DNA from: Betaproteobacteria bacterium
GTDB lineage: Bacteria; Pseudomonadota; Gammaproteobacteria; Burkholderiales; JAHFQX01
Length of the DNA: 64,000 nucleotides
Assembly (NCBI GenBank): GCA_023259135.1
Contig: JAHFQX010000007.1
Coordinates: forward strand, 7,529-71,528
Reading direction: 5' to 3'
Part shown: in pieces, positions 4,080 through 64,000 of the stretch
Position numbering within the stretch: the stretch's first letter is position 1
How the letters are laid out: every line of letters starts with the position of its first letter
Translations under genes and position numbers: made by a program
The notes under the pieces: generated by a model
What the model was told of the DNA's origin: nothing
The model's input: the letters and a program-made list of their open reading frames with translations, nothing else
Databases searched by the model: none

Positions 4080-4097
4080 ACCAATCCAGGCCCCGAG

Positions 4098-4685
4098 TTA
4101 ATCCAGCACCGAAACCGACTCCTGCCGCAACATCGCCACCAAGGCGATCAAAGGCAGGCCGATCAAGGCTGTGGGATCATCCCCTTGTATGCTCTGTATT
4201 AGGGCGATTCCCAAGCCTTCCGACTGGGCGCTGCCGGCACAGTGATAGGGTTGCTCTTTCTTCAGGTAGGCGTGAATTTCCTCGTCGGTGTAATCCCTGA
4301 AATGCACCACGGTGCTCACGACCCGAGACTGCATACGATCGGCGGCGGTATTCCATAATGCCAGCCCAGTATGGAACTGCACGGCCCGGCCTCGGGTCTT
4401 GCGCAGCTGACGCAGCGCATTTTCAAAAGTGTAAGGCTTGCCCAGTACTTCGTCATCGAGCATGGCGACTTGATCCGAACCAATCACCAGGCTTTCAGCT
4501 GCAACGACTTTGCAAGCACGGGCCTTGGCTTCCGCCAGGCGGGCCGCGGTATCGGATGAGGCCTCGCCGGGCAGGGGGGTTTCGTCGACCTCCGGAGCCC
4601 AGGTGGAGAAGGGGATGCACAGCCGCTCCAGTAATTTCTTGCGATAAACCGAAGATGAAGCCAGAATAAAAATAGGTTTGCCCAC
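4098..4685 (-). CDS. maf: Maf-family nucleoside triphosphate pyrophosphatase (YceF-like)
   Basis: 195-aa ORF; Maf signatures ILASSSVYRKKLLE, VIGSDQV, GKP, AGSAQSEGLG. Divergent from yceD-rpmF-plsX as yceF is in E. coli. Confidence 0.85.
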   Translation of the reverse strand: MGKPIFILASSSVYRKKLLERLCIPFSTWAPEVDETPLPGEASSDTAARLAEAKARACKVVAAESLVIGSDQVAMLDDEVLGKPYTFENALRQLRKTRGRAVQFHTGLALWNTAADRMQSRVVSTVVHFRDYTDEEIHAYLKKEQPYHCAGSAQSEGLGIALIQSIQGDDPTALIGLPLIALVAMLRQESVSVLD

Positions 4686-4784
4686 GCCGAGAAGCTCTAA
4701 AATAAAGCCGAATTACTTTCCCGTTTGGAAAGCGGAAGGTGGAGAAAGCCGGATCCCACCCCCGGGATTTTCTGGAAAACCGTT

Positions 4785-4813
4785 TTGACACGGACTGTTA
4801 GAAATAATATCAT
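4785..4813 (+). promoter_or_regulatory. Near-consensus sigma70 promoter in front of yceD-rpmF-plsX
   Basis: TTGACA (4785-4790), 17-nt spacer cggactgttagaaataa, TATCAT (4808-4813), read directly from the sequence. The yceD ATG is at 4823, only about 10 nt after the -10 box. Confidence 0.5.
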
Positions 4814-4822
4814 GCGCCGCTT

Positions 4823-5314
4823 ATGTTCGAACAGGCGGTTATCGACAGTCCGGATTTTGCCCGTAAGGGTCTCCAGATGGCCTTGCGGGTGCCGGTTGCC
4901 CAATTTACCCGGCTCCAGGAGGCCCTGAAGGAATCCACCGGCGAACTGGATTTCGTTTTATCCGGTTTCGTGGATCCCCAAGAAGGTACAATGTTGCGGC
5001 TTTCGATCGCGGGCCAGTTACGGCTTGTCTGCCAGCGATGCTTGGGTCCAGTGGATCACTCCTTGGCCCTTAACCGGCAGTTCGTGCTGTATGCCGAAGA
5101 AAATCAGTTAGGTGACTTGGCCGAGGAAAACCCCGAAGTCGATCACATCCTTGGCAGCCGGAATATGAATGTCCTGGATTTGGTCGAAGAAGAAGTTTTG
5201 CTGTCCTTGCCCCTGTTCCCGCGCCACGCCGAAGCCGCCTGCCGTTTGGCCAGCACCGAGGTGGCGGCAACCCATCGCCCGATGGCTGGGCTGAAGGAAT
5301 TGTGGGGCCGTTAA
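4823..5314 (+). CDS. yceD: YceD (DUF177) large-ribosomal-subunit accumulation protein
   Basis: 163-aa ORF directly upstream of rpmF. Cys pair CQRCLGPVDH and acidic C-terminal half (DLVEEEVLLSLPLFPRH) are typical of DUF177. Confidence 0.8.
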   Translation: MFEQAVIDSPDFARKGLQMALRVPVAQFTRLQEALKESTGELDFVLSGFVDPQEGTMLRLSIAGQLRLVCQRCLGPVDHSLALNRQFVLYAEENQLGDLAEENPEVDHILGSRNMNVLDLVEEEVLLSLPLFPRHAEAACRLASTEVAATHRPMAGLKELWGR

Positions 5315-5350
5315 TAGATCGTTGTTATTCGAATTGAGGGGTTTTCCGAT

Positions 5351-5530
5351 ATGGCTGTTCAGCAAAACAAAAAATCTCCTTCCAAGCGCGGAATGCGCCG
5401 GGCCCATGATTACTTAGTTAATCCGCCCCTGGCTATAGAGCCCCGCAGCGGGGAAGTTCATTTGCGCCATCATGTGACTCCCACCGGGTTCTATCGTGGC
5501 AAGAGAGTCATTGCTCCCAAAGGCGAATAA
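5351..5530 (+). CDS. rpmF: 50S ribosomal protein L32
   Basis: Not in the ORF track (59 aa). Own translation: [59 protein letters not shown]. Classic L32 N-terminus and position between yceD and plsX. Confidence 0.9.
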
Positions 5531-5613
5531 ACTTTCCTCCCGAATTTTGAATGCGGAAGCTCCCCCGGCTTCCCGCTAATTTGAATTCTTGTCGCCCTGC
5601 TGGCGGGCCCGGC

Positions 5614-6624
5614 ATGGAAATAACCGTCGCCGTCGATTGCATGGGAGGAGACCACGGTCCTCCCGTTACCGTCCCTGCGGCAGCCAAGCTGGCTCAGCGG
5701 ATTCCAGGCTGCCGTATCTTGCTGGTCGGCTTGGAGCCGGATGTGGCCGCCCAGTTGCGACGCATCCATGGCGACGTTTCCCGTTTATCCATTGTCCACG
5801 CGTCGGAAGTGGTGGAGATGGACGAATCCCCCGCGCTGGCGCTGAGATCAAAGAAAAATTCATCCATGCGCGTGGCGGTGGATCTGGTGCAAAGCGGAGC
5901 GGCGGATGCCTGCGTGAGCGCCGGCAATACCGGGGCCCTTATGGCCATCTCTCGATTCGTGCTCAAAACCCTGCCCGGCATCGAGCGGCCGGCCATCGCT
6001 TCGGCCTTACCTACCTTGCAAGGCCACACTTATGTGCTGGACTTGGGAGCCAATGTGGATTGCACGCCTTCCCAGTTGCTGCAATTTGGTTTGATGGGCT
6101 CCTCCCTGGTGAGCGCCGTGGACCATGTGAAGCGCCCGCGGGTCGGACTCCTCAATATCGGTGAGGAAGACATCAAGGGTAACGATACGGTCAAGCAGGC
6201 TGGCGAGTTATTCAAGGCCAGCGACCTTAACTATATCGGCAATGTGGAAGGCGACGATATCTATCTGGGAGGAGTGGATGTGGTGGTGTGCGACGGTTTC
6301 GTTGGTAACGTGGCCCTGAAAACATCCGAAGGATTGGCCCAAATGATTGCTACCTTGCTGCGCCAAGAATTCAGCCGTGGCTTATATTCCAGGTTGGCGG
6401 CGTTAATCGCCTTGCCCGTACTGCGGGCTTTCAAGAACAAGGTGGATCATCGACGCTACAATGGCGCCAGCCTCCTCGGGTTGCGAGGAATTGTCGTGAA
6501 AAGCCATGGTTCCGCTGATTCTTTTGCATTTCAATGGGCTATCGAGCGGGCTGCGGAGGAGGTGCGCAACGGCGTCCTGGAGCGCATCGGCGCCCGCTTG
6601 AGCAGTGAAAGGGAGGTGGCTTGA
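5614..6624 (+). CDS. plsX: Phosphate acyltransferase PlsX
   Basis: Track ORF 5551..6624 trimmed to ATG 5614 ([16 protein letters not shown]). Also [10 protein letters not shown] and VKSHGSADS. rpmF-plsX-fabH synteny. Confidence 0.9.
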
Positions 6625-7580
6625 TGTATTCCCGCATCATCGGCACTGGTAGCTATCTGCCTGCCAAGCTTCTGACTAACCGGGATTTGGAAAGCGTGGT
6701 GGACACCACCGATGAATGGATCTACAGCCGCAGCGGAATACGGGAGCGGCACATCGCCGCCGATGACGAAAACGCCAGCGATCTGGCGGTGGCCGCGGCC
6801 CGAAAAGCCATGCAAGCTGCCGACGTCGGCCCCGAGGATATTGGGCTGATCGTGGTGGCCACGACCACTCCCGACATGATTTTTCCCAGCACCGCCTGCC
6901 TGGTTCAGCACAAACTCGGTATCAAGAATTGCCCCGCCTTCGATATGCAAGCGGTGTGCAGCGGATTCGTTTATGCCTTGGCAACCGCCGACAAGTTCTT
7001 GCGCTCCGGGGCGTGCCGACATGCCTTGGTGATTGGAGCCGAAATCTATTCCCGCATTCTGGACTGGAAGGACCGCTCTACTTGCGTGTTGTTCGGCGAC
7101 GGGGCGGGGGCCGTGGTGCTAGGCCTCAGCGATACCCCCGGCGTTCTATCCACTCATCTGCATGCCGACGGCAGCTATCACGAAGTTCTTTCAGTGCCTG
7201 GCTGCGTGTCACGAGGCGAAATCAAAGGGCACCCTTTCGTGGTCATGGAAGGCAGCGCGGTGTTCAAGTTTGCCGTTAAGGTGCTGGAGGAGGTCGCTTT
7301 GGAGGCCCTCGCTGCCAATGGCCTGTCTCCTCGCGAGGTGGACTGGTTGATTCCCCACCAAGCCAATATCCGGATTATCCAGGCTACCGCCAAAAAACTG
7401 GGGCTCGGGATGGACAAGGTCGTTGCCACCGTGGAACGACACGCCAATACCTCTGCCGCATCCATTCCCCTGGCGCTGGACGAGGCGGTGCGGGACGGCC
7501 GGATTCGGCCGGGGAATCTGGTTCTGTTGGAAGGAGTGGGGGGCGGTTTTACGTGGGGTGCAGCGCTGTTGCGCTGGTAA
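6624..7580 (+). CDS. fabH: 3-oxoacyl-ACP synthase III
   Basis: Track start 6621 is TTG; ATG 6624 follows a GGGAGG ribosome-binding site. Active-site Cys context [36 protein letters not shown]. Confidence 0.9.
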
Positions 7581-7596
7581 TGAAAGGTTCAGTGGC

Positions 7597-8529
7597 ATGG
7601 ATTTCGCACTAGTTTTTCCCGGGCAGGGCTCTCAATCGGTGGGCATGATGGCCCCCTACGATTCACTGAATGAGGTTCGAAACACTTTCTCCCAGGCGTC
7701 GGAAGTGCTGGGTTTCGACCTGTGGGACATGGCCCAGCAAGGCCCTGCCGAGACGCTGAATCTAACCGTGAACACCCAGCCGTTGCTCTTAACCGCGGAA
7801 GTGGCAATTTACCGCGCTTGGCGAGCCGCCCACGGGCCGGAGCCCAAAGCCATGGCAGGCCATAGTCTGGGAGAGTACGCCGCTTTAGTGGCGGCCGAGG
7901 CCCTTTCTTTCCCTGATGCTCTGCGGACGGTCCGATTTCGTGCCGAAGCGATGCAGCGAGCGGTTCCAGAGGGTACGGGTAGCATGGCCGCGATCCTCGG
8001 GATGGATGACGAGAGGATTCGTCAGGTATGTCGGGATGCGGCCCAAGGAGAAGTGCTGGAGCCGGCTAATTTTAATTCGCCGGGACAGGTGGTGATCGCC
8101 GGCCACAAAGCAGCCGTCTCCCGAGGAGCGGCGCTGGCAACGGAAAGAGGGGCAAGGAAGGTGATGCCGGTCGCCATGAGCGTTCCTTCCCACTGTAGTC
8201 TGATGAAACCCGCCGCCGAAAAACTCCGGGACTTTATCGCGGAGATCAGAATCGACCGGCCGCGAATTTCAATCATTCATAATGCTGATTTGCGGGCCAT
8301 CACCGACCCGGCGGAAATCAAAGCAGCCTTAGTGCGGCAACTGTTCAGTCCGGTGCGTTGGGTGGATACGGTCAAAACTTTGACTGCTCAAGGGATTACT
8401 CATTTTATAGAGTCCGGCCCCGGCAAGATTCTGACCGGAATGAACAAGCGGATCGATGGGGTGCAACAAGCCATCGTTTTGAGCGATGCCGACGCTATCC
8501 GCCAGACCATCGCCCTGCTGGCTCAATAA
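7597..8529 (+). CDS. fabD: Malonyl-CoA:ACP transacylase
   Basis: Track ORF 7423..8529 trimmed to ATG 7597 (MDFALVFPGQGSQSVGMM). Active-site GHSLGEYAALV. Confidence 0.9.
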   Translation: MDFALVFPGQGSQSVGMMAPYDSLNEVRNTFSQASEVLGFDLWDMAQQGPAETLNLTVNTQPLLLTAEVAIYRAWRAAHGPEPKAMAGHSLGEYAALVAAEALSFPDALRTVRFRAEAMQRAVPEGTGSMAAILGMDDERIRQVCRDAAQGEVLEPANFNSPGQVVIAGHKAAVSRGAALATERGARKVMPVAMSVPSHCSLMKPAAEKLRDFIAEIRIDRPRISIIHNADLRAITDPAEIKAALVRQLFSPVRWVDTVKTLTAQGITHFIESGPGKILTGMNKRIDGVQQAIVLSDADAIRQTIALLAQ

Positions 8530-8541
8530 AGGAACTGGAGC

Positions 8542-9282
8542 ATGCTGAAAGAACAAATCGCTTTCGTCTCTGGCGCCAGCCGGGGGATCGGCCAGGCGAT
8601 TGCATTGGAATTGGGCCGGCAAGGAGCGGTAGTCGTGGGAACCGCTACCACTGATGCTGGAGCCGCAACCATCACTGCACGATTTCAGGAAGCCGGCGTC
8701 ACGGGAATCGGAATGATCCTCAATGTCAATGATTCCGGGCAGGTGGAACAAGTATTTTCCGCCGTGCAGCAGCAATTCGGACATGTGACCGTGCTGGTCA
8801 ACAACGCCGGCATTACTCGGGATAACCTATTGCTGCGCATGAAAGACGAGGAATGGGACGACATCATGGCCACCAACCTGAAGTCGGTATACCGGCTCAG
8901 CAAGCTGGTGCTGCGCTCCATGATGAAAGCCCGTCACGGCAGAATCATCAATATCACTTCGGTGGTAGGCAGCATGGGGAATGCCGGACAAAGCAATTAT
9001 GCCGCCGCCAAAGCCGGAATAATCGGGTTTAGCAAATCCCTGGCGCGGGAAGTGGGCAGCCGCAATATCACTGTCAATTGCGTCGCTCCGGGCTTCATCG
9101 ACACCGATATGACCCGAGACCTAGGCCAAGCTCAGCAGGAACAACTCCTCCAGCAGGTCCCCTTGGGACGGCTAGGGCAGCCCCAGGACGTCGCCGGGGC
9201 GGTCGCTTTTCTGGCGTCTCCGGCTGCCGGATACATTACCGGGGCCACGTTGCCCGTCAATGGAGGGTTGTATATGGAATGA
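8542..9282 (+). CDS. fabG: 3-oxoacyl-ACP reductase
   Basis: 246 aa. SDR motifs VSGASRGIG, NNAG, catalytic S...NYAAAKAG. Position between fabD and acpP. Confidence 0.9.
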   Translation: MLKEQIAFVSGASRGIGQAIALELGRQGAVVVGTATTDAGAATITARFQEAGVTGIGMILNVNDSGQVEQVFSAVQQQFGHVTVLVNNAGITRDNLLLRMKDEEWDDIMATNLKSVYRLSKLVLRSMMKARHGRIINITSVVGSMGNAGQSNYAAAKAGIIGFSKSLAREVGSRNITVNCVAPGFIDTDMTRDLGQAQQEQLLQQVPLGRLGQPQDVAGAVAFLASPAAGYITGATLPVNGGLYME

Positions 9283-9518
9283 TATAGACGCTAAGGAAGC
9301 CCTGAATTTTCCTGGCGACATATTACGGCCATATCAAATTTGGTAAAATGCATCCGCGGAGCAACTTCATCAGCGGAGTCTATGGACGCGGAGCAAGCGG
9401 CAGATGTATAGGCTCGGGGAGCCTCCAAAATGAATTATCTGGGGTCAGGCGCGCCGCCGTTCGATCCAAACGGCTTTCACATTCGATTCATTTGATAAAG
9501 AAAGGGAAGGGGGCATCG

Positions 9519-9755
9519 ATGGAAAATATCGAACAACGCGTTAAAAAAATCGTCGCGGAGCAATTGGGCGTTAGCGAGGCAGAAGTGAAGGCGGAATCTT
9601 CCTTCGTCAACGATTTGGGGGCCGATTCCCTGGATACCGTGGAGTTGGTGATGGCTCTCGAAGAAGAATTCGACTGCGAGATTCCCGACGAGGAGGCAGA
9701 AAAAATTACGACGGTTCAGCAAGCCATCGATTACGTCAAAGCGCTGGCTTCTTGA
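9519..9755 (+). CDS. acpP: Acyl carrier protein
   Basis: Track ORF 9348..9755 trimmed to ATG 9519 (preceded by AAGGGAAGGGGG). [18 protein letters not shown]...[19 protein letters not shown] contains the phosphopantetheine Ser motif DSLD. Confidence 0.95.
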
Positions 9756-9789
9756 GTTTCTTGTCGAATCGCCAAGGGAAACCATATCC

Positions 9790-11028
9790 ATGTTGCGCCG
9801 CAGGGTAGCGATTACCGGCCTGGGAATTGTCTCCCCCGTCGGTATCGGAATCAAGGATTCCTGGGACAACGTTTTGGCGGGTCGTTCGGGTATCACCCGC
9901 ATTACCCGCTTCGATCCTAGTCTCTTTGCTTCTCAGATCGCCGGAGAGGTGAAGGATTTTGATGTCAGCCAATACCTGCCGGCCAAGGAAGCCCGGCGGA
10001 TGGATATTTTCATTCACTACGGGTTGGTTGCCGCTATTGAGGCCATTCAGGACGCAGGCCTGGCGGGGCATCCTGATAATGCGGAGCGCATCGGCATCAA
10101 TATCGGTTCCGGCATCGGCGGGTTGCCGATGATCGAGGATACCGACAAGGTCTATCAGCAGTCCGGTCCTAGAAAAATTTCTCCCTTTTTCATTCCCGGC
10201 ACCATCATCAATATGATCTCCGGGAATCTATCCATCATGTATGGATTCAAGGGGCCGAACTTGGCCATCGTCAGTGCTTGCGCCACCGCCACTCACTGCA
10301 TTGGCGACTCGGCGCGATGGATCGAATATGGGGATGCCGACATCATGATTGCGGGAGGTGCCGAATCCTGCATCACCCCTTTGGCGGTGGGGGGGTTTGC
10401 CGCGGCCCGGGCGCTGAGTACCCGTAACGACGATCCTGCGACCGCAAGCCGGCCCTGGGATGTGGAGCGCGATGGATTTGTGATAGGTGAGGGCGCTGGC
10501 GTGCTCGTCCTGGAAGAGATGGAACATGCCAAGCGCCGGGGTGCCACCATCTATGCCGAACTCGCCGGTTTCGGCATGGGGGCCGATGCCCATCATATCA
10601 CTGCCCCCTGCGAAGATGGGGAGGGCCCCGCCCGCTGCATGAGTATTGCGCTCAAGAATGCGGGCATGGCATTGGACGAAATTGATTACATCAATGCCCA
10701 TGGCACTTCGACGCCCTTGGGAGACATCGCCGAGACCGTGGCGGTAAAACGCTGTTTCGGGGACCATGCGAAACGACTGGCGGTGAGCTCCACCAAATCC
10801 ATGACCGGCCATCTGCTGGGAGCGGCAGGGGGAGTCGAGGCCATTTTCAGCGCCTTGGCCATTAAGCACCAGGTTGCCCCACCCACCATCAACCTGGGCC
10901 AGCAGGACCCGCAGTGCGATTTAGATTACATTCCCAACATGGCCCGGAAAATCAGCATCCGGGGAGCCCTATCAAATTCCTTTGGGTTCGGTGGAACCAA
11001 CGCGACCTTGGTGTTTCGCCGAGTTTAG
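9790..11028 (+). CDS. fabF: 3-oxoacyl-ACP synthase II
   Basis: 412 aa. RRVAITGLGIVSPVG, active-site Cys in IVSACATATHCIG, His contexts NAHGTSTPLGD and KSMTGHLLGAAG. Confidence 0.9.
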   Translation: MLRRRVAITGLGIVSPVGIGIKDSWDNVLAGRSGITRITRFDPSLFASQIAGEVKDFDVSQYLPAKEARRMDIFIHYGLVAAIEAIQDAGLAGHPDNAERIGINIGSGIGGLPMIEDTDKVYQQSGPRKISPFFIPGTIINMISGNLSIMYGFKGPNLAIVSACATATHCIGDSARWIEYGDADIMIAGGAESCITPLAVGGFAAARALSTRNDDPATASRPWDVERDGFVIGEGAGVLVLEEMEHAKRRGATIYAELAGFGMGADAHHITAPCEDGEGPARCMSIALKNAGMALDEIDYINAHGTSTPLGDIAETVAVKRCFGDHAKRLAVSSTKSMTGHLLGAAGGVEAIFSALAIKHQVAPPTINLGQQDPQCDLDYIPNMARKISIRGALSNSFGFGGTNATLVFRRV

Positions 11029-11099
11029 ACCCGATCCTTCTGGCATTCCCGGTCCAGGCGATTTAACCCCCTGCCCCCAGTTGAGCCGGAAAGCAAGAA

Positions 11100-11915
11100 A
11101 TGAATCTCGTCAACGGCCGGGAATCCGATAGCGTGAGTTTGGATGATCGCGGTTTGGCTTATGGAGACGGCGTATTCCGCACCGTGCAAATTCAGGGAGG
11201 GCGCCCTCTGCACTGGGAGCGTCATCGACGTAAGCTGCTCAGCGACTGCATGGGACTCGGAATCCCTATCCCGAGCCTCGATGCCTTGGAGCGGGATGTT
11301 GCGCTGGCCTGCTCTCGGGAGCCCGAGGCCGTTCTTAAAATCATCGTCACCCGCGGCGTAGCCGGGCGAGGCTATGCTCCGCCTCCCGACCCGCAACCTA
11401 CCCATATCGTCCGCACCGCCCCCTCCCCTTCGTACCCGCCCCATTACGCCCAATCCGGAGTTCGGTTGCATCTTTGCGCTTTGCGCTTGGCCTGGCAGCC
11501 CAGGTTGGCTGGGATCAAGCATCTAAACCGGCTGGAGAACGTGCTGGCCCGGGCGGAATGGGATGATCCGGAGCTTGCGGAGGGGTTGTTACTGGACATC
11601 GAGGATAACGCCATCGAAGGCACCATGAGCAACTTGTTCATCGTCGAGGCGGGGATCTGTGCCACCCCCTCTTTGGGTCGTTGCGGGGTGGCCGGAGTAC
11701 AGCGGGGGCGTGTTCTGCAATGGGCGGTCCAAACCGCCACTCCTTGCCGAGAGGAAAATATTCCCTTGCCTCGCTTGCTGAAGGCCGACGAGGTTTTCCT
11801 TGTCAATAGCCTGATTGGCCTGTGGCCGGTACGAGAGGTCGGCGGGCAAATCTGGGACCGCTGGCCGGTGGCTGCCCAGATCAGCCAATGGTTGGCCCGA
11901 GACGATGGCGCATAA
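11100..11915 (+). CDS. pabC: Aminodeoxychorismate lyase (class IV aminotransferase fold)
   Basis: 271 aa. DRGLAYGDGVFRT, GIKHLNRLENVLA (PLP Lys context), SNLFIV. fabF-pabC-mltG-tmk synteny as in E. coli. Confidence 0.75.
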   Translation: MNLVNGRESDSVSLDDRGLAYGDGVFRTVQIQGGRPLHWERHRRKLLSDCMGLGIPIPSLDALERDVALACSREPEAVLKIIVTRGVAGRGYAPPPDPQPTHIVRTAPSPSYPPHYAQSGVRLHLCALRLAWQPRLAGIKHLNRLENVLARAEWDDPELAEGLLLDIEDNAIEGTMSNLFIVEAGICATPSLGRCGVAGVQRGRVLQWAVQTATPCREENIPLPRLLKADEVFLVNSLIGLWPVREVGGQIWDRWPVAAQISQWLARDDGA

Positions 11916-12903
11916 GCCTCATCCACAGCGTAAACGACGCTGGCTATTTTTGATTCTGTTGGCACCGCTCATTGGATTGGCAGTCTATGGGTTTATGCCC
12001 CTCAGCCCGCCCCAAACGCCTTTTCAGTTTACCTTGAAAAACGGCAGCACTTTGCGCTCTGCCGCCGGCCATATGGCGGAAGTCGGCATACTCAAAAATC
12101 CCCCAATTTTTGTCGTGCTGGCTCGGGCCTTGGGCAAAGCCGGAGCAGTGAAGGCCGGGACCTACGAATTGGAACGGCCCATCAGTCCCCTGAACCTGCT
12201 GTTGCTGATTACCCGGGGAGAAGCCCGGCTGGACAGCATTACCTTCGTGGAGGGTTGGACTTTTCGGCAGATGCGGACAGCCTTGGATACTCACCCGGCA
12301 GTGGCACATACCCTTGGGAGCATAGGGGAAAAGCAACTGCCGGAGCTTTTGGGGGTAGAGGAGCCTTCGGTGGAAGGGCTCTTTTTTCCGGATACCTATT
12401 TTTTCAGCCATGGCACCAAGGACGTCGATATCCTCCGCAAGGCTCGCGCCGCCATGCAGTCCCAGCTGACAACCCAATGGCTATCCCGTCGCTCCGACCT
12501 GCCTATTGCCACCCCTTATGAAGCTTTGATCGTTGCTTCTATCGTGGAAAAAGAAACCGGGCGGGAACAAGACCGGCCTCTGGTGGCCGCGGTGCTAATG
12601 AACCGGCTACGCCTAGGTATGCGGCTGCAAGTCGATCCTACGGTTATTTACGGCCTCGGGGACAAGTTCGACGGCAATCTGAGAAAACGGGACTTGATCG
12701 CCGATCAGCCCTACAATACTTATGTGAGAGTCGGTTTACCGCCTACCCCGATTTGCATGCCGGGTTTAAGCTCGCTGTCGGCAGTCCTACGTCCGGCGGA
12801 CAATTCTGCGTTGTACTTTGTCTCCCGAGGGGACGGGAGTACCCATTTTTCCTCTTCCCTGTCGGCCCACGAACAAGCCGTCAACAAATACCAAAAACCA
12901 TGA
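11905..12903 (+). CDS. mltG: Endolytic murein transglycosylase MltG (YceG family)
   Basis: Track ORF 11815..12903 trimmed to ATG 11905 ([22 protein letters not shown] = cytoplasmic tail plus TM). YceG motifs [34 protein letters not shown]. Confidence 0.85.
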
Positions 12904-56960: not shown

Positions 56961-57227
56961 AACCTAATCCCCTCATTCGGGCATGATAATCGCGTTTTCG
57001 AGTTTGCTCCTTGCACGGCCGGCCCCAATAGCTTGATTCACAAATCATGTTAGCATGAAAATATAACTCAATAAGGAGAACTTTTTCTGCTTTGGTGACT
57101 TGGCTCAAAAAACAGCCAAAATCCAAGCTGTGGGGTACCGGCCTGCACCTCCTGATGCCGCAGTTTATATCCATTGAAGCCAACCGGGAAATCCTCACGA
57201 TCCCGACGGCTTTGAGCATCCAAGGCG
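56961..57227 (-). promoter_or_regulatory. AT-richer 267-nt upstream region of the cytochrome operon (promoter region, motifs unconfirmed)
   Basis: The only sizeable gap in this part of the window and visibly less GC-rich than its surroundings. Candidate motifs are listed in the findings. None is strong. Confidence 0.4.
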
Positions 57228-58013
57228 TCACCATCCCCCGAACGACAAGCCCCCGTTGACGCTGACGGTCTGGCCGGACACCTGGGCCGCCTGGTCGGAA
57301 GCCAGGAAGGCCGCCACTTCGGCAACCTCCTCGGCGGTCGGCGCCCGGCCCAGGGGGAAACGGCTCAATGCCTTGCTGAACAGCTTATTCTCGAAACTCG
57401 GCTTGCTGAATATCTCATCGTAGCGGGGCGTATCCGAGGTGAGCGTCAAGGCCACGCAATTGACCCGTATTTTCCAGCGGGAAAATTCCCGGGCCAGGGC
57501 CTTGGTCATGAGAATGGTCGCGGCCCCGACGCTGCCGATCAGGGATTCTCCCGGCGTGGGATGACGGCCGGCATCGGTGGTGATCAGCACGATGGAGCCC
57601 CGCTGCCGCTCCCGCATGCCGGGGAGCGCCGCATGAACGGGAAAGACCCGCGGCAGGTAGCGGGTCTCGAAAGCTTTCAGGAAATCCTCGGGCTTTAACT
57701 CATGGAACGGCGTCGGGCCGGGCTTCTCCGACCCGCCGCTGCTCACCAGGATGTCGATGGGGCCGAGACGCCGCGCCACGGCGGTCACCACCCGGCTGAT
57801 TTCATCGTAGCGGGCGGCGCTGCCGGCCTCAAAGATGAACTCGGCGCCGGTATGGGCCAAACGATTCATCGCATCTTCTCCGGCCGCCGCTTGGCGCCCG
57901 TTCAGCGCCACCCGGGCGCCTCGCTTGGCCAGTGCCTCGGCGATGCGAAAACCGATGCCGCTGGTGGAGCCCGTTACCAGCGCTACTTTCCCTTGCAAAT
58001 CCTGCTTGTCCAT
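57228..58013 (-). CDS. SDR-fold protein lacking the canonical catalytic Ser-Tyr-Lys
   Basis: Track ORF 57228..58475 trimmed to ATG 58013 (MDKQDLQGKVALVTGSTSGIG). Rossmann/TGxxxGxG motif intact. The catalytic region reads ITTDAGRHPTPGESLIGSVGAATILMTKAL where the in-window FabG has [30 protein letters not shown]. Confidence 0.7.
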   Translation of the reverse strand: MDKQDLQGKVALVTGSTSGIGFRIAEALAKRGARVALNGRQAAAGEDAMNRLAHTGAEFIFEAGSAARYDEISRVVTAVARRLGPIDILVSSGGSEKPGPTPFHELKPEDFLKAFETRYLPRVFPVHAALPGMRERQRGSIVLITTDAGRHPTPGESLIGSVGAATILMTKALAREFSRWKIRVNCVALTLTSDTPRYDEIFSKPSFENKLFSKALSRFPLGRAPTAEEVAEVAAFLASDQAAQVSGQTVSVNGGLSFGGW

Positions 58014-58054
58014 GATTCCTCCTGGTGCTTTTTTAATAACGGCAATCCGGAGCA

Positions 58055-58468
58055 TCACTCCGGTTCGGTAAACCGCATCAATCCGGAGCGCAACGAATCG
58101 GGGATGGGTATGGCTTGCTCGGCCCGAATGTCCACCGTCACCATGACGATATGGCCCGTCACCGCGGCTTCCTGCTCCCCATCCCGAATCAGCTCGAATT
58201 CCATGCGGATAGAGCTGTTGCCCAAATGTCCGATCCACGCCCGCACCACGCCCCGGTCGTGAACCTTGAGGGGATGGCGGTAGTCGGCTTCGAGGTGGGC
58301 ACGGGGAAGGCCATAGCCTTCTTGTATTATGGCGTAGCCGGTAAACCCGGCCTCGCGGAACAACCGGGCTTCGGCCTGGGCCACATAATGAAACACCGCC
58401 GCGTAATAGACCCAACCCGAAGGGTCGGAGTCTCCAAACAACACCTCGAAGGGCACTTCCAGCTTCAT
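58055..58468 (-). CDS. Hotdog-fold acyl-CoA thioesterase (4HBT/YbgC-like)
   Basis: Track ORF 58055..58663 trimmed to ATG 58468 (ATGA overlap with the upstream ligase stop). MKLEVPFEVLFGDSDPSGWVYYAAVFHY carries the N-terminal catalytic Asp context. 137 aa. Confidence 0.7.
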   Translation of the reverse strand: MKLEVPFEVLFGDSDPSGWVYYAAVFHYVAQAEARLFREAGFTGYAIIQEGYGLPRAHLEADYRHPLKVHDRGVVRAWIGHLGNSSIRMEFELIRDGEQEAAVTGHIVMVTVDIRAEQAIPIPDSLRSGLMRFTEPE

Positions 58469-59982
58469 GACCCATGTTCTTTCATGTCGAGCACCATTTT
58501 CTTGAGCTTCTCCTTCATCACCCGGCCGCTCAGGTTGCGGGGCAGCTCGGCAGCGAACATCACCCGCCGGGGGCGCTTGTAGCGGGCCAAGCCGGCCTCG
58601 GCAAAACCCATCAATTCCCCGGCATTCGCCTGCCGGCCGGGCTTGAGAACGACGACCGCGCAAATCAGCTCAGTCCACTCGGGGTCCGGCAGGCCGATGC
58701 AGGCCGCTTCCGCCACCGCCGGGTGGGAAGCCAGAACCTCTTCCACTTCCGGCGCGTAGACATTGATCCCCCCGCTCTTGATCACATCCCGCTTGCGGCC
58801 GACGAAATAAAGATAGCCGTCGGCATCGAAGCGGCCCAAGTCCCCCACAGTGAAGAACTCACCCCGCCGGGTACTGTCCGTCAACTCCGGATCGTTGTAA
58901 TAGCCTTCGTATTGGAACGAACTGCGGGCGCAGATTTCCCCCACCTCTCCCACGGCCACTTCCTTGCCGTCGTCGTCCAGCAGGCGAACTTCCACTCCAA
59001 AGAATACCGTCCCGATGCAATTGCCCTCGGCATATCGCAGCACCGCGTCGCCCTTTAGATTGGCGTAGGGCCCCACCTCGGTGGAGGCGGCGTAGATGCT
59101 GAGCACCGGGCCGGCCTTGGCAAACCAGGCTTGCCGCAAATCCGCCTCCACCGCCCCGCCGCCCGATTGAATGAGCCGCAGCGAGCGCCCGGAAAAATCC
59201 TGGAACGCCGGAGATTCCATCATTCGGCGCAGCAAAGGCGGAAACATCATGGCGGCGGTAATCTTTTCCTTGTCGATCAAGGCTAGGGTCCGCTCCGCAT
59301 CGAAGGATTCCATGAGGTAAACCGTCGCCCCCAGGTATAGCGGCAGCATGGCGTAGCCGAAGCCCGCCGACAGGCACAGCGGCATCACGCAAAGGGTGCG
59401 GTCCTCGGTGGCAAAGCCCTGCTCGATGGCCCGTTCCTCGAAACCCCATTTTTCCCGTAGGGTGCCTTTCGGGCGGGAAGTGGTGCCGGAGGTGTGGAGC
59501 ATGATGAGGGCCCGCGATTCTCGGAGATCGGCCTCGGCATCGCTCGCGGCGGCCAGGCGCTCCGGCAACGAAAGCACACGTCCGCCCTCCCCGGCTTGCA
59601 AGGCATCCAGGCAATACACTTGCTCCACTCGGCCGGCGAAGCGTTCCCCGTGGGCCAAATGATGGCGGTCCACCAGCAGGGCGCGGCTGTGGGAGTGAGT
59701 CAGGATATGCAGCATGTCATCGTCGGACAGCCGGTAATTCACCGGCACCGGAACGGCCCCGAAGCCCATCAGGGCAAAATACGCGGTGATGAAATCCGGA
59801 TGATTCAACGCCAGGATCGCCACCTTGTCGTCGCGGCCATAGCCCGCCTGGCGCAATGCGTTCATCATCCCGCAAACGCGGCGATACAGCTCCGCATAGC
59901 TCCAGGACGATTCGCCAAAGCACAGCGCCGGCTTGGCGGGAAAGCGCCGGGCGTTGAGCCGCAGCGCCTCGGTGAAGGTCAT
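58465..59982 (-). CDS. AMP-forming acyl-CoA synthetase / ligase (class I adenylate-forming)
   Basis: Track ORF 58465..60417 trimmed to ATG 59982 (MTFTEALRLNARRFPAKPAL). AMP-binding box LHTSGTTSRPKG, YGSTE-like AASTEVG, TVGDLG, GRKRDVIKSGGINV, C-terminal Lys GRVMK. Confidence 0.85.
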   Translation of the reverse strand: MTFTEALRLNARRFPAKPALCFGESSWSYAELYRRVCGMMNALRQAGYGRDDKVAILALNHPDFITAYFALMGFGAVPVPVNYRLSDDDMLHILTHSHSRALLVDRHHLAHGERFAGRVEQVYCLDALQAGEGGRVLSLPERLAAASDAEADLRESRALIMLHTSGTTSRPKGTLREKWGFEERAIEQGFATEDRTLCVMPLCLSAGFGYAMLPLYLGATVYLMESFDAERTLALIDKEKITAAMMFPPLLRRMMESPAFQDFSGRSLRLIQSGGGAVEADLRQAWFAKAGPVLSIYAASTEVGPYANLKGDAVLRYAEGNCIGTVFFGVEVRLLDDDGKEVAVGEVGEICARSSFQYEGYYNDPELTDSTRRGEFFTVGDLGRFDADGYLYFVGRKRDVIKSGGINVYAPEVEEVLASHPAVAEAACIGLPDPEWTELICAVVVLKPGRQANAGELMGFAEAGLARYKRPRRVMFAAELPRNLSGRVMKEKLKKMVLDMKEHGS

Positions 59983-59995
59983 GGCCGCGGAAGCC

Positions 59996-61150
59996 TCATT
60001 CGAAGGCCGACATGCCGAGAATCTCACGGCCGATGATGAGCGTCTGCACTTCCGAAGTCCCCTCGGGAATGATGCCGCCGCGGGTGTCGCGGAAAATCCG
60101 TTCGATGGGGTAATCCTTGCTGTAGCCCATGCCGCCATGGACTTGCAGGGCATGATTGGCGACCTCGAAGGCGGACTCGGTGGCAACCTTCTTGGCGATG
60201 GAGCATTCCATGCGCGCCGGCTTGCCTCGGTCGAGGGCCGCCGCCGCCCGGAAACCCAGCCAGCGGGCAGCCTCGGTGAGACATTGCATCTCCACGATGT
60301 GCTGCTGCACCAGTTGGAAGCTGCCGATGGGCCGGCCGAACTGCTTGCGATCCTTGGCGTAGCGGATGGATAGATCCAGCGCCGCCTGGGCTGCCCCCAC
60401 CGCCCCCATGGAAACATTCAGCCGGCCGTAATTGAGGCCGGTGAGAATCAGCTTGAGGCCCTCCCCCACTTTGCCCAGCACGTTTTCCTTAGGCACCGCC
60501 ACGTCCTCGAACACCAGTTCGGAGGTCGCCGTGGATTGCAGGATCATGGTATGCACTCGCCGGCCCGAATACTGGGCCTGCTCCCGCTCCACCAGAAAGG
60601 CCGTAATGCCGCCGGGATGGCTGTCAGTAGGGGTCACCTTGGCCATGAGAATGCCGAAGTCGGCCCAGATGCCGTTGGTGATCCACAACTTGGTGCCGTT
60701 GATGAGGTAATGGTCGCCTTTGTCCACCGCCCGGGTTTCCATTCCCGCCACGTTGGAGCCGTGGTTGGGTTCGGTGATGCCGACGAAGAAGCGCTTCTTG
60801 CACTCCAACAGCGGCTTGAGGAAGCGCTCCCGCTGGGCCGGCGTGGCGTGGGTATGCAGCAGGCTGGCGGCGATGTTCACGGTATTGAGCACCACCCGCA
60901 TGCTCAGCCAATGATAGCCCGCCAGTTCCATCAGCACCGCCCAACTGACGTAGTCCATGCCAAAGCCGCCGGCCTGCTCGGGCAGCAACCCACCGATGTA
61001 GCCGAATTGCTTGAGCTTGGGCAGCAGCTCCCAGGCGAATTCCCCGCGGCGCTCGTGGTCGGCGACGATGGGGTCCACCTCCTGGGCCAGAAAACGGCTT
61101 ACGGTTTCCCGAAGTATGTTCTGTTCGTCGGTCAGTTCGAAATCCACCAT
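59996..61150 (-). CDS. Acyl-CoA dehydrogenase (canonical C-terminal catalytic Glu type)
   Basis: 384 aa. GITEPNHGSN, WITNG, GLNYGRL, RKQFGRPI, IIPEGTSEVQ (Glu base at the MCAD/SCAD position). Confidence 0.85.
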   Translation of the reverse strand: MVDFELTDEQNILRETVSRFLAQEVDPIVADHERRGEFAWELLPKLKQFGYIGGLLPEQAGGFGMDYVSWAVLMELAGYHWLSMRVVLNTVNIAASLLHTHATPAQRERFLKPLLECKKRFFVGITEPNHGSNVAGMETRAVDKGDHYLINGTKLWITNGIWADFGILMAKVTPTDSHPGGITAFLVEREQAQYSGRRVHTMILQSTATSELVFEDVAVPKENVLGKVGEGLKLILTGLNYGRLNVSMGAVGAAQAALDLSIRYAKDRKQFGRPIGSFQLVQQHIVEMQCLTEAARWLGFRAAAALDRGKPARMECSIAKKVATESAFEVANHALQVHGGMGYSKDYPIERIFRDTRGGIIPEGTSEVQTLIIGREILGMSAFE

Positions 61151-61177
61151 GGCGACTTCCTCCTCAACAGGTCCCGT

Positions 61178-62344
61178 TCAATAGGATTTGGGCAGCCCCA
61201 ACACCTTCTCGGCGATAAAACACTTGATCAGTTGCGGACTGATCGGGGCGATCCAATGGATCAGCACTTCCCGCAGATAGCGTTCCACGTGGTACTCCTT
61301 GGCATAGCCGAAGCCGCCGTGGGTCAGCACCGCGGTCTCGCAAGCCTTTACCGCGGCCATGGAGGCCAGGTATTTGGCGGCGTTGGCCTCCGCCCCGCAG
61401 GGCTCGCCCCGGTCGTACAGGCTGGCGGCCTTGAAGGCCATCAGATTGGCGGCTTCCAGTTCCATCCAATTCTCGGCCAGCGGGTGCTGCACTCCCTGAT
61501 TCATGCCGATGGGTCGGTCGAATACGATCCGTTGCTTGGCGTATTGGGCGGCGCGCTTCAGCGCGACCCGGCCGATGCCCACCAATCCGGCGGCGATCAA
61601 AATCCGTTCCGGATTCAAGCCGTGGAGAATGCAGTGGAAACCCTTGCCTTCCTCGCCGATGCGATCCTCGACGGGAACCGGCAGGCCGTCGATGAACAGC
61701 TCGTTGGAATCCACCGCTTTGCGGCCCATCTTCTCGATCTCCCGCACCGTGACATAGCGCCGGTCGATGTCGGTATAGAACAACGATAATCCATCGGTGG
61801 GGCGCTTGACCTCGTCCAGGGGGGTGGTGCGAGCCAGGATCAGCATTTTTTCCGACACCTGGGCGGTGGTGATCCAGACCTTGCGGCCGCTCAGTATATA
61901 CCGATCGCCATCCCGCACCGCACGGGTCTTGAGCTTCAGGGTATCCAAACCGGTATTGGGCTCGGTCACGGCGAAGGCGGCCTTGACCTTCCCTTCGATG
62001 AGGGGCGGCAGAATGCGCCGCCTTTGCTCTTCGGTTCCGAACTTCACCACCACGTTGGGGGCAAACACATTGATGGATATGGCCGAACCCCCGCTCAGGC
62101 CGGCGCCGCTTTCGGTCACCGCCTGGGACAGAATTGCCCCCTCGGTAATACCCAATCCGGAGCCGCCGTATTCCTGGGGCATGGCAATACCCAGCCAGCC
62201 GTCCTTGGCCAGCGCTTGGTGCAACTCCACCGGGAAGCCGCCTTCCCGATCCTTTTTGAGCCAATAGTCGTCGTCGAATTGGCTGCAAATCTTTAAGATA
62301 GCTTCCCGGATAGCCTGCCGCTCGGGGGAGAATTCGAAGTCCAT
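61178..62344 (-). CDS. Acyl-CoA dehydrogenase-family protein, tandem paralogue 2
   Basis: 388 aa. AVTEPNTGLDT, VWITT, GLNPERI, IVFDRPIG, ends ...IAPISPQLIKCFIAEKVLGLPKSY. Same length as the next gene upstream and largely identical to it. Confidence 0.85.
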   Translation of the reverse strand: MDFEFSPERQAIREAILKICSQFDDDYWLKKDREGGFPVELHQALAKDGWLGIAMPQEYGGSGLGITEGAILSQAVTESGAGLSGGSAISINVFAPNVVVKFGTEEQRRRILPPLIEGKVKAAFAVTEPNTGLDTLKLKTRAVRDGDRYILSGRKVWITTAQVSEKMLILARTTPLDEVKRPTDGLSLFYTDIDRRYVTVREIEKMGRKAVDSNELFIDGLPVPVEDRIGEEGKGFHCILHGLNPERILIAAGLVGIGRVALKRAAQYAKQRIVFDRPIGMNQGVQHPLAENWMELEAANLMAFKAASLYDRGEPCGAEANAAKYLASMAAVKACETAVLTHGGFGYAKEYHVERYLREVLIHWIAPISPQLIKCFIAEKVLGLPKSY

Positions 62345-62353
62345 GGCGGTCCC

Positions 62354-63520
62354 TCAATAGGATTTAGGCAAGCCGAGCACCTTCTCGGCGATGAAGCACT
62401 TGATGAGCTGAGGCGTGATCGGGGCGATGCGCAGCAGGATCGACTCCCGGAACAGCCGCTCCACGTGGTATTCCTTGGCATAGCCGAAGCCGCCGTGGGT
62501 CAGCACCGCGGTCTGGCAGGCCTTGAAGCCGGCCTCTCCGGAGAGATATTTGGCGGCATTGGCCTGGGCGCCGCAGGGTTTGCCTTGGTCATACAGGGCG
62601 GCGGCATGGAACGCCATCAGATTGGCAGCCTCCAATTCCATCCAGCATTCCGCCAAGGGGTGCTGGATGCCTTGGTTCATGCCAATGGGGCGATCGAAGA
62701 CGATGCGCTCCTTGGCGTACTGGGCGGCGCGCCGCAGCGCGGCCCGGCCGATCCCGACTCCCGCCACGCCGCCCAGGATGCGCTCCGGATTCATGCCGTG
62801 GAGAATGTACTCGAAGCCCTTGCCCTCCTCGCCGATGCGGTCTTCCACCGGCACCGGCAAATCCTCGAAGAACACTTGATTGGAATCCACCGCTTTGCGC
62901 CCCATCTTTTCGATTTCCCGGACTTCGATGTATTTGCGGTCGAAATCGGTGTAGAACAGGGACAGGCCATCGGTCGATTTCTTCACCTCCTGAGGATCCT
63001 GGGTGCGGGCCAGCAAGAGGATCTTGTTGGCCACTTGACCGGTGGAGGTCCACACCTTCTGGCCATTGACGATGTAGCGGTCCCCCTTGCGCACCGCCTT
63101 GGTTTTGAGCTTCAAGGTATTCAAGCCGGTATTGGGCTCGGTGACCCCGAAGCAAGCCTGCTCCTTGCCCTGGATCATGGGGGGCAGCATGCGGCGTTTC
63201 TGTTCCTCGGTGCCGAACACCACCACCGGATTGAGGCCGAAGATGTTGAGGTGAATGGTAGAGCAGCCGCTGATCCCGGCGCCCGATTCCGCCACAGCTT
63301 GCATCATGATGGCCGCTTCGGTGATCCCCAGCCCGGCGCCCCCGTATTCCTGGGGCATGGCGATGCCCAGCCAGCCGGCCTCGGCGAAGGCCTTATGAAA
63401 ATCGAAAGGGAACCCCCCCTGCCGGTCCTTCTTCAGCCAGTAGTCGTCGCCGAACTGGGCGCAGATTTTGAAAATCGCTTCCCGGATGGCTTCTTGCTCG
63501 GGGGTAAAGGCGACATCCAT
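62354..63520 (-). CDS. Acyl-CoA dehydrogenase-family protein, tandem paralogue 1
   Basis: Track ORF 62354..63625 trimmed to ATG 63520 (MDVAFTPEQEAIREAIFKIC). 388 aa. GVTEPNTGLNT, GMNPERI, ends ...IAPITPQLIKCFIAEKVLGLPKSY. Confidence 0.85.
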   Translation of the reverse strand: MDVAFTPEQEAIREAIFKICAQFGDDYWLKKDRQGGFPFDFHKAFAEAGWLGIAMPQEYGGAGLGITEAAIMMQAVAESGAGISGCSTIHLNIFGLNPVVVFGTEEQKRRMLPPMIQGKEQACFGVTEPNTGLNTLKLKTKAVRKGDRYIVNGQKVWTSTGQVANKILLLARTQDPQEVKKSTDGLSLFYTDFDRKYIEVREIEKMGRKAVDSNQVFFEDLPVPVEDRIGEEGKGFEYILHGMNPERILGGVAGVGIGRAALRRAAQYAKERIVFDRPIGMNQGIQHPLAECWMELEAANLMAFHAAALYDQGKPCGAQANAAKYLSGEAGFKACQTAVLTHGGFGYAKEYHVERLFRESILLRIAPITPQLIKCFIAEKVLGLPKSY

Positions 63521-63549
63521 GTTGATTTCCTCCTCGGGAAAATGGGCCC

Positions 63550-64000
63550 TCAGCCGTAACGGCCGCCGGTGATATGCAAGGTCTCGCCGCTGATGTAGCC
63601 GGCCCGCTCGGACGCCAGGAAGCACACTCCGGCGGCGATATCGTCGGGCTCTCCGACGCGGGGCACGGGGGTGGCGGCAATGGCCTTGGCGGCGATTTTT
63701 TCGTAATGGGGCAAGGATTCCACCAGCTCGGTCTTGATGAAGCCCGGGGCGATGGCATTGACGGTGATGTTGAACTTACCGGATTCCAAGGACAGCGCCC
63801 GGGTCAGCCCGATGACCCCCGCCTTGGCGGCGGAGTAGTTGGCTTGGCCGGGGTTCCCCAAGTGGGCTCGGGAGGAAATGTTGATGATCCGTCCGAACTT
63901 CTGGGCGATCATGTAGGGAATCGCCGCCCGGGAGCACAGGAAGGTGCCTTTCAGAATCACGTCGATAACGCTGGTCCAATCCTCGTCGGACATCTTGGTA
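63550..64000 (-). CDS. SDR-family oxidoreductase (FabG-like), C-terminal part; gene starts beyond the right edge
   Basis: Track ORF 63550..63993 begins at an internal Met. The reading frame stays open to the window edge. Canonical IINISS...NYSAAKAG...APGFI. Confidence 0.8.
   Translation of the reverse strand, partial: TKMSDEDWTSVIDVILKGTFLCSRAAIPYMIAQKFGRIINISSRAHLGNPGQANYSAAKAGVIGLTRALSLESGKFNITVNAIAPGFIKTELVESLPHYEKIAAKAIAATPVPRVGEPDDIAAGVCFLASERAGYISGETLHITGGRYG

Follow-up and report, generated by a model that had tools for sequence, protein, structure and literature searches.

Which kind of pathway is served by seven acyl-CoA genes that run in one direction off the edge of an assembled stretch, with neither a hydratase nor a thiolase among them? 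The genes lie on the minus strand at positions 57228–64000 of 64,000 nt of DNA from a Betaproteobacteria bacterium (assembly GCA_023259135.1, contig JAHFQX010000007.1, hereafter C32), and this whole stretch, C32:7529-71528, is called the window. In transcription order they encode a short-chain dehydrogenase/reductase (SDR1), three acyl-CoA dehydrogenases (ACAD1, ACAD2 and ACAD3), an AMP-forming acyl-CoA ligase, a hotdog thioesterase (TE) and a second SDR-fold protein (SDR2). A sequence-only reading had taken the lack of hydratase and thiolase as a sign that this is not a β-oxidation operon, and had proposed conversion of an unusual carboxylic acid or a biosynthetic tailoring route. Our main result is corrective: what seemed an incomplete and exotic acyl-CoA pathway appears to be the end of a long, complete catabolic array, the rest of which was hidden by a contig break. 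This array probably serves uptake and CoA-dependent, β-oxidation-type breakdown of one or more organic acids other than plain fatty acids.

The contig join and the full array

C32 ends 1829 nt beyond the window. In this remainder the SDR1 gene is completed (full open reading frame (ORF) at L003:7079-7828), and is preceded in the array by a gene for a TctC/Bug binding protein and by the part encoding the C-terminal 154 residues of a third SDR, SDR0. The last 33 nt of C32 (73325-73357) are the exact reverse complement of the last 33 nt of another contig of 12,276 nt, C63, and this is the sole end-to-end overlap among the 172 contig ends of the 86-contig assembly. When C32 and C63 are joined, one intact SDR0 ORF of 252 aa is formed, with TGAASGMG, NNAG and YxxxK motifs. 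Moreover, a 252-aa protein from a different assembly (P0202, on a 23.7-kb contig) matches the C63-encoded N-terminal part at 106 of 108 residues and the C32-encoded C-terminal part at 152 of 154. Because this independently assembled protein matches both halves, we regard the join as established. The automatic source name of SDR0 relatives, 'cyclopentanol dehydrogenase', is unsupported by curated models and was not used as evidence.

The join adds 12 further genes from C63, all co-directional with gaps of at most 138 nt, and the joined array contains at least 21 genes of the same direction over about 21.5 kb, of which the window genes are the 3′ third. It extends almost to the far end of C63, leaving no more than 120 nt, and further genes may belong to it. 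Read 5′ to 3′, it can be divided into three blocks. Block A comprises an enoyl-CoA hydratase (ECH), a DctP binding protein, a further ECH, an SCPx-type thiolase, a DUF35 protein and a family III CoA-transferase. Block B comprises a Bug binding protein, ECH, ADP-forming acyl-CoA synthetase, ECH, subunits A and B of a 3-oxoacid CoA-transferase and SDR0. Block C comprises the second Bug protein, SDR1, ACAD1, ACAD2, ACAD3, ligase, TE and SDR2. A foreign origin judged by composition was rejected, since the GC content of the array (0.62) matches the genome mean (0.626). Clusters of this style are common in the 2.58-Mb genome, which holds at least 30 Bug genes along with numerous clusters in which ACAD, CoA-transferase and hydratase genes occur together; thiolases and FadB-type genes are also carried by other contigs.

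These upstream genes bear directly on the question raised by the seven window genes. Hydratase, FadB-type dehydrogenase and thiolase are indeed all absent from 57228–64000, and the statement holds for that interval only. The conclusion drawn from it, that the locus is not of β-oxidation type, fails because the missing enzymes are supplied upstream across the confirmed join: four ECH hydratases and a thiolase, in the same direction and closely spaced. The sequence-only reading had itself named hydratase and thiolase genes beyond position 64000 as the finding that would turn the locus into an ordinary fatty-acid degradation operon, and such genes were found on the joined C63. A breakdown cluster is what they point to, but not one of the FadAB type, as the array has an SCPx-type thiolase with DUF35, no FadB and varied CoA-activating enzymes.

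The description of the window genes themselves was borne out. Gene calls from a six-frame ORF listing with choice of start codons gave seven co-directional minus-strand genes, separated in transcription order by 29, 9, 27 and 13 nt, a 4-nt ATGA overlap between ligase and TE, and 41 nt, and Pfam upheld the family call of each protein with scores well over cut-off. None of the seven passed an NCBIfam equivalog model. SDR2 is 267 nt from the neighbouring cytochrome operon, and nothing turned up that ties this operon to the array. The weak hairpin with a T-run that follows SDR2 (Table 1) is a possible 3′ end of the transcription unit, which we take as a hint only, such sites being no commoner than in shuffled sequences; in the scan of 9.4 kb no sigma-70-like promoter site was found, and terminator-like sites were at chance level.

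Table 1. Genes of the joined array and the site that follows it. Rows from ECH-a to SDR0 are given in coordinates of locus L183, which is the C63 strand continuing the array; all other rows are window positions.
Feature	Coordinates	Strand	Remarks
ECH (ECH-a)	121-897	array direction	
DctP binding protein	894-1958	array direction	
ECH	1992-2804	array direction	
SCPx-type thiolase	2943-4112	array direction	Thiolase_C_1; passes NCBIfam subfamily NF004811 (PRK06158)
DUF35 Zn-ribbon/OB-fold protein	4116-4517	array direction	
Family III CoA-transferase	about 4580-5788	array direction	
Bug binding protein	5831-6823	array direction	
ECH	6873-7655	array direction	
ADP-forming acyl-CoA synthetase	7683-9797	array direction	
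ECH	9827-10597	array direction	
3-oxoacid CoA-transferase subunit A	10604-11272	array direction	passes TIGR model
3-oxoacid CoA-transferase subunit B	11269-11940	array direction	passes TIGR model
SDR0	from 11951	array direction	spans contig joint
SDR1	63550..64000, gene extends to equivalent of 64299	-	canonical FabG-like SDR, 249 aa in full
ACAD1	62354..63520	-	388 aa, acyl-CoA dehydrogenase; like ACAD2, resembles isovaleryl-CoA dehydrogenase (IVD) and long-chain acyl-CoA dehydrogenase (LCAD)
ACAD2	61178..62344	-	388 aa, acyl-CoA dehydrogenase
ACAD3	59996..61150	-	384 aa, acyl-CoA dehydrogenase
Ligase (LIG)	58465..59982	-	505 aa, AMP-forming acyl-CoA ligase
TE	58055..58468	-	137 aa, hotdog thioesterase, 4HBT/YbgC type
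SDR2	57228..58013	-	261 aa, SDR-fold; final gene of array
Terminator-like hairpin	57112..57131	-	weak, with T-run; about 100 nt 3′ of SDR2 stop; L003 660-641

Enzymes of the array and a proposed route

Alignment of the three ACADs with their relatives indicates two types of catalytic base. ACAD3, in which the Pfam ACAD N, M and C domains are all found, shares with its orthologues a Gly ahead of the invariant helix-G Arg and a C-terminal IPEGTSE motif. ACAD1 and ACAD2 are tandem paralogues with 74% identity; they and their paralogues elsewhere in the genome show NPER at helix G, with a Pro in place of the C-terminal Glu found at this position in medium-chain acyl-CoA dehydrogenase (MCAD). We take Glu376 of MCAD to sit in the YEGTSE loop and Glu254 of IVD to sit right before the conserved Arg. 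According to the motif alignment and these two positions, ACAD3 looks to have an MCAD-type catalytic Glu and ACAD1 and ACAD2 one of the IVD/LCAD type, and all three appear catalytically competent. Other copies of ACAD1 occur in the same genome on contigs C5 (83% identity) and C44 (78%). The former lies in a small cluster with a Bug binding protein, family III CoA-transferases and an ECH hydratase (C5:769-7519), and the latter lies between a MaoC hydratase and a CoA-transferase, with a DctP gene about 4 kb upstream (C44:17278-20054).

For the remaining enzymes of block C, families could be assigned with similar detail. SDR1 scores 256 bits with the NCBIfam FabG subfamily model NF009466, above its cut-off of 222, and both SDR1 and SDR0 have the classical Ser, Tyr and Lys. 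The ligase matches Pfam AMP-binding with 226 bits as well as AMP-binding_C, and passed no NCBIfam model; among solved structures it comes closest to a fatty-acyl-CoA synthase and to a feruloyl-CoA synthetase (E about 1e-65). TE belongs to the 4HBT/YbgC hotdog thioesterases by its Pfam 4HBT_2 score (57.1 bits against a cut-off of 25.5) and by the N-terminal Asp of DxDxxG. In its best solved match, 4-hydroxybenzoyl-CoA thioesterase 5WH9, the Asp of the GDxDxxG motif is aligned. The narrower NCBIfam YbgC/FadM model is not passed by TE (40.4 against 68.7). TE was also considered as a diverged MaoC and rejected as such, with BLASTP showing no significant similarity to the MaoC proteins of related loci.

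In the breakdown reading that we regard as probable, the binding proteins would deliver substrates to transporters of the tripartite tricarboxylate transporter (TTT) and tripartite ATP-independent periplasmic (TRAP) families, and the ligase, the ADP-forming synthetase and the CoA-transferases would form CoA esters. ACAD1, ACAD2 and ACAD3 would then introduce a 2,3 double bond, and probably take different substrates or chain lengths, because their bases differ (IVD-type in ACAD1 and ACAD2, MCAD-type in ACAD3). Hydration could be performed by the upstream crotonases or by a MaoC encoded on contig C53, oxidation of the 3-hydroxyacyl-CoA by SDR0 and SDR1, and cleavage by the thiolase–DUF35 pair or by a citryl-CoA-lyase-like enzyme, also of C53. 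TE may free CoA from end products or dead-end esters. SDR2 would probably act as an NADPH-dependent reductase, possibly on the C=C of an enoyl- or dienoyl-CoA.

Breakdown of an acid other than a plain fatty acid is plausible from the non-Fad enzyme set and from the lack of any curated model that fits, and to this extent the earlier suggestion of an unusual carboxylic acid stood; what did not stand is a pathway without hydration and cleavage. The biosynthetic tailoring route that had been offered beside it is very unlikely, since genes for three periplasmic binding proteins of uptake systems are dispersed among those for the enzymes.

Several points weigh against the breakdown reading. No array enzyme passed a curated pathway or equivalog model, the passes being confined to generic subfamilies (FabG, thiolase PRK06158 and 3-oxoacid CoA-transferase A/B). 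The array is split by three binding-protein genes and its blocks may serve different substrates, and the products of block C, which itself has no hydratase or C–C cleaving enzyme, may not be what the hydratases and thiolase of the other blocks act on. In addition, one would not readily expect translational coupling between ligase and thioesterase in a route that serves degradation alone. Finally, the arrangement is not seen in the closest genome available, that of the metagenome-assembled genome (MAG) FW602_bin.10 (hereafter G404), where near-identical genes are scattered.

The ligase module of related loci and the mosaic of block C

Alignment of the ligase against one genome per species gave 77 related loci, 66 of them with a ligase of ≥45% identity. 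Their comparison revealed a conserved module consisting of a binding protein (TRAP or Bug), an SDR, an ACAD, an AMP-ligase, a MaoC hydratase, a citryl-CoA-lyase-like protein and a family III CoA-transferase. An ACAD3-type gene (58-72% identity to ACAD3) lies directly upstream of the ligase in 47 of the 59 readable loci, and an SDR1-type gene (62-67% identity to SDR1) lies upstream in 51 of these 59. MaoC directly follows the ligase in 55 of 62 loci, in most with a 4-nt start/stop overlap like that between ligase and TE here. After MaoC there usually come the citryl-CoA-lyase-like gene, whose product passes the generic citryl-CoA lyase subfamily model of NCBIfam, and the family III CoA-transferase; a TRAP or Bug binding protein is often first. 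Carriers are found in Rhodobacteraceae, Comamonadaceae, Sphaerotilaceae, Acidocella, Reyranella and Vineibacter, with example loci in Pseudooceanicola atlanticus (L036), Piscinibacter sakaiensis (L063), Hydrogenophaga intermedia (L058) and MAG FW602_bin.10 (L020).

Neither the curated models nor the literature searched assigned a substrate to this module. On chemical grounds, the sequence of an ACAD, a MaoC hydratase and a cleavage of citryl-CoA-lyase type might fit 2-substituted succinates or related acids, since the CoA esters of these, once hydrated, are similar to citramalyl- or citryl-CoA. As it is present in dozens of cultured Rhodobacteraceae and Burkholderiales, the module is a tractable target for pathway discovery. 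A separate observation concerns its spread. The module MaoC is 100% identical in 11 loci (L027 and L034-L043) from Rhodobacteraceae nominally of at least seven genera; compared position by position, identity is 99.96% between L034 and L036 and 92.8% between L036 and either L039 or L043. Possibly the module travels on an element or plasmid that has spread recently among marine Rhodobacteraceae.

Block C shares the first part of this module. The window ligase, 50-58% identical to those of the module, falls within a 27-row module clade with 100/100 support, and the order Bug, SDR1, ACAD3, ligase is retained, with a hotdog-fold gene translationally coupled to the ligase stop. However, the coupled hotdog gene is here a 4HBT thioesterase, followed by the atypical SDR2 instead of lyase and CoA-transferase, and two extra ACADs stand between SDR1 and ACAD3. 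Both differences are peculiar among the loci compared: in 0 of 66 was a homologue of TE or SDR2 found within 10 kb, and in 0 of 66 an ACAD1/2-type gene inserted in the same orientation between SDR and ACAD. The single match in that interval is the reverse-strand ACAD2-type gene of Piscinibacter (L063), which by coordinates lies upstream of the SDR. The second half of the module is present elsewhere in the genome, at C53:27080-29444 (L184), where MaoC, the citryl-CoA-lyase-like protein and a family III CoA-transferase stand together beside three Bug genes. From gene order and the ligase tree, block C thus appears to be a rearranged descendant of a widespread module rather than a new type of pathway, in which, in this lineage, the ACAD1/ACAD2 pair was apparently inserted and a two-gene TE–SDR2 unit took the MaoC position. 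Within the clade the window ligase pairs weakly with a second ligase of its own genome, 55% identical and flanked by Bug genes on both sides, with no adjacent ACAD or SDR detected (C58:26671-30203).

Comparison with G404 suggests a mosaic origin of the array. Housekeeping proteins of the two genomes are 41-77% identical (ClpB 77, SurE 74, Pcm 65, CysD 64, CysN 61, NlpD 46 and RpoS 41%). The array genes closest to G404 are much nearer, with 98% for ECH-d, 95% for ACAD2, 94% for the CoA-transferase of C63, 92% for ECH-b, 91% for SDR2 and 88% for TE, while ligase (55%), SDR1 (66%) and ACAD3 (71%) match the canonical module that G404 itself carries. The near-identical genes are distributed in G404 over at least five contigs in other contexts (L097, L100, L185, L186 and L187), and the ACAD2 homologue is in a different cluster. 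TE and SDR2 are adjacent there, between an FMN-dependent dehydrogenase and surE-pcm-nlpD-rpoS; because no ligase is nearby, the TE–SDR2 pair is a separable unit. These identities suggest that single genes or small units were recently exchanged horizontally and reshuffled, and the excess of catabolic (88-98%) over housekeeping identity points to an actively exchanged pool of acyl-CoA genes in the community. On one G404 contig (G404:C122; L185, about 11700-12615), the 92% DNA match to ECH-d runs about 125 nt into the start of 3-oxoacid CoA-transferase A and then ends abruptly, which looks like a recombination or deletion breakpoint in G404.

The sharp difference between neighbouring genes in their identity to G404 (88-98% for TE, SDR2, ACAD2, ECH-d, the CoA-transferase and ECH-b, 55-71% for ligase, SDR1 and ACAD3) would also be expected if assembly or binning had joined two co-occurring populations in one contig. 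We consider such an artefact highly improbable. Every gene is intact and the spacers are as short as those of operons; GC content is even throughout and agrees with the genome mean, and housekeeping genes such as clpB lie on the same contig. Moreover, independent assemblies reproduce SDR0 across the contig break as well as SDR2, at 98-99% identity, and the artefact would require many chimeric junctions exactly at gene borders.

The exchange of MaoC for TE and SDR2 bears on a further question, whether block C could work by itself. In such a self-contained route, of the kind proposed in the sequence-only reading, the ligase would activate an acid, the ACADs would desaturate it, SDR2 (as an NADPH-dependent enoyl reductase), SDR1 or both would change its redox state or stereochemistry, and TE would free the product, with no hydration or cleavage. 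The block comes with a binding protein of its own and lacks both hydratase and lyase, its TE is coupled to the ligase exactly where related loci have the hydratase, and among solved structures SDR2 is closest to a C=C reductase. However, in the module from which SDR1, ACAD3 and the ligase derive, a hydratase follows in 55 of 62 loci, and often a lyase as well, and the genome retains the MaoC–lyase–transferase trio on C53. With co-directional genes upstream that encode four hydratases and a thiolase, and with TE–SDR2 of G404 having no adjacent ligase or ACAD and hence not being tied to this ligase, we consider a self-contained block C unlikely. A more specific version treats TE–SDR2 as a mobile two-gene unit, built around an SDR family in which the Tyr–Lys chemistry was replaced by another. 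By displacing the hydratase of the module, the unit would have made block C a CoA-dependent route that activates an acid, desaturates it, reduces it again with NADPH and releases it, with SDR2 as a new kind of enoyl-CoA reductase. If true, this route could, for example, invert the stereochemistry of an imported acid or shift its double bond; we think it improbable. The breakdown of imported acids by the whole array remains the reading we prefer.

SDR2 and comparison with known systems

SDR2 had been called degenerate in the sequence-only reading, which is right for its motif and misleading where decay is implied. Its Pfam scores are 148 bits for adh_short_C2 and 128 bits for adh_short, and its Gly-rich dinucleotide motif is intact. 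The classical SDR tetrad (Asn-Ser-Tyr-Lys) is not present in an alignment with SDR1 and 20 homologues: Ile and Gly stand at the Tyr and Lys positions of YxxxK. Among the 21 family members aligned (54-85% identical to SDR2), the Tyr column holds Ile, Val, His or Asn and the Lys column Gly or Ala in 21 of 21. Residues of its own are invariant in this family, namely the Gly-rich motif, an Arg after strand 2, D147, R150, K171, E176, N185, K214 and a C-terminal GGLSFGGW. More than 700 homologues are found at E≤1e-30, many of them 54-85% identical, and an independent cluster contains SDR2 at 99% identity. The family is large and well conserved, and by its alignment appears functional and under selection rather than decayed. 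A search of 400 genomes across the order found 0 SDR2, a result that carries little weight, as scoring was limited to 6 of the many SDR candidates in each genome.

In metagenome contigs, relatives of SDR2 (52-64% identity) adjoin family III CoA-transferases, ECH or MaoC hydratases and binding proteins, and these neighbours link the family to acyl-CoA metabolism. This Tyr/Lys-less SDR family, with hundreds of members among CoA enzymes, is biochemically unexplored. The automatic source name of SDR2 relatives, '2-hydroxycyclohexanecarboxyl-CoA dehydrogenase', is unsupported by curated models and was not used as evidence.

The closest solved structure to SDR2 is AerF (6JH7, E 1.3e-30, alignment over residues 6-258 of 261). 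AerF is described as an SDR-fold enzyme that reduces the C=C bond of an alkenal with NADPH in aeruginosin Choi biosynthesis, by SDR mechanics that are unusual (PMC13256417). Like SDR2, it has no Tyr and Lys at the YxxxK positions and keeps the Gly-rich motif. However, identity is low (about 30% by eye), different residues stand in for Tyr and Lys, and AerF acts on a free keto-acid in a cyanobacterial peptide pathway, whereas relatives of SDR2 sit among acyl-CoA enzymes. In our reading, SDR2 is probably an NADPH-dependent reductase with a non-classical mechanism, possibly acting on the C=C of an enoyl- or dienoyl-CoA.

The main alternative role for SDR2 is that of a catalytically dead partner subunit, pairing with SDR1 or SDR0 as a heteromeric 3-hydroxyacyl-CoA dehydrogenase in the way of BbsC. 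In benzylsuccinate β-oxidation of anaerobic toluene degraders (bbs; BbsEF, BbsG, BbsH, BbsCD and BbsAB, summarised in PMC10818641), inactive pseudoenzyme subunits have been described for BbsCD in a report cited there. Absence of Tyr and Lys agrees with this role, and the joined array has every bbs enzyme class. Nevertheless, the invariant Gly-rich motif and the conserved Arg after strand 2 suggest that a cofactor is bound, and family-specific polar residues are invariant around the active-site region. Moreover, no second SDR adjoins SDR2 in G404 or in most metagenome contexts, and AerF is described as active despite its absent Tyr and Lys. We therefore doubt the pseudo-subunit role, and regard a reductase as the probable function of SDR2.

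The characterised systems that had been named as candidates for the window genes found no support, as all scores in their profile models were far under cut-off. For the cyclohexanecarboxylate pathway (AliA, AliB and BadH), the three ACADs score 164-190 bits against 575 (TIGR03207) and 179-221 against 650 (NF043006), and SDR2 scores 128.7 against 431 in the BadH model TIGR03206. For pimeloyl-CoA dehydrogenase PimCD the scores are 71-144 against 624 (TIGR03204) and 94-125 against 653 (TIGR03203), and ACAD1 and ACAD2 have close paralogues that are not paired. For 3-sulfinopropionyl-CoA desulfinase they are 197-239 against 600 (NF042439), and a candidate catalytic Glu is present in all three ACADs. 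It had also been foreseen that homologous clusters might already have an assigned pathway. None was found in the curated models or in the literature searched, where no paper assigned a pathway to this gene combination.

Two known systems resemble the array in part. Operons of the FadE/FadBA/FadD type share with it a ligase, ACADs, hydratases, a dehydrogenase of the 3-hydroxyacyl-CoA type and a thiolase. In contrast to FadBA, the array has no FadB-type 3-hydroxyacyl-CoA dehydrogenase, the PF02737 matches of the genome being on C26 and C37 only with a sub-threshold one on C48. A FadA-type thiolase is likewise missing from the cluster: PF00108 matches lie on other contigs, none on C63, and one weak match lies far upstream on C32 (14278-14583). 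CoA-transferases and periplasmic binding proteins predominate instead, and the array was rejected as a FadBA-type operon.

The bbs system is closer in its logic. It shares with the joined array a family III CoA-transferase, an ACAD, a crotonase hydratase, SDRs of which one is without catalytic residues, and a thiolase with a Zn-ribbon/OB-fold partner. However, the gene order is another, and the array contains in addition an AMP ligase, an ADP-forming synthetase, a 3-oxoacid CoA-transferase, a thioesterase and three uptake binding proteins. Since its thiolase is far under the cut-off of the BbsB equivalog (NF053628, 150.6 against 750 bits), the likeness is one of logic and not of membership. 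Taken together, the array is best filed under catabolism of some acid other than a plain fatty acid, of β-oxidation type and in the binding-protein-rich style seen elsewhere in this genome and in related Burkholderiales loci, with an arrangement specific to its lineage.

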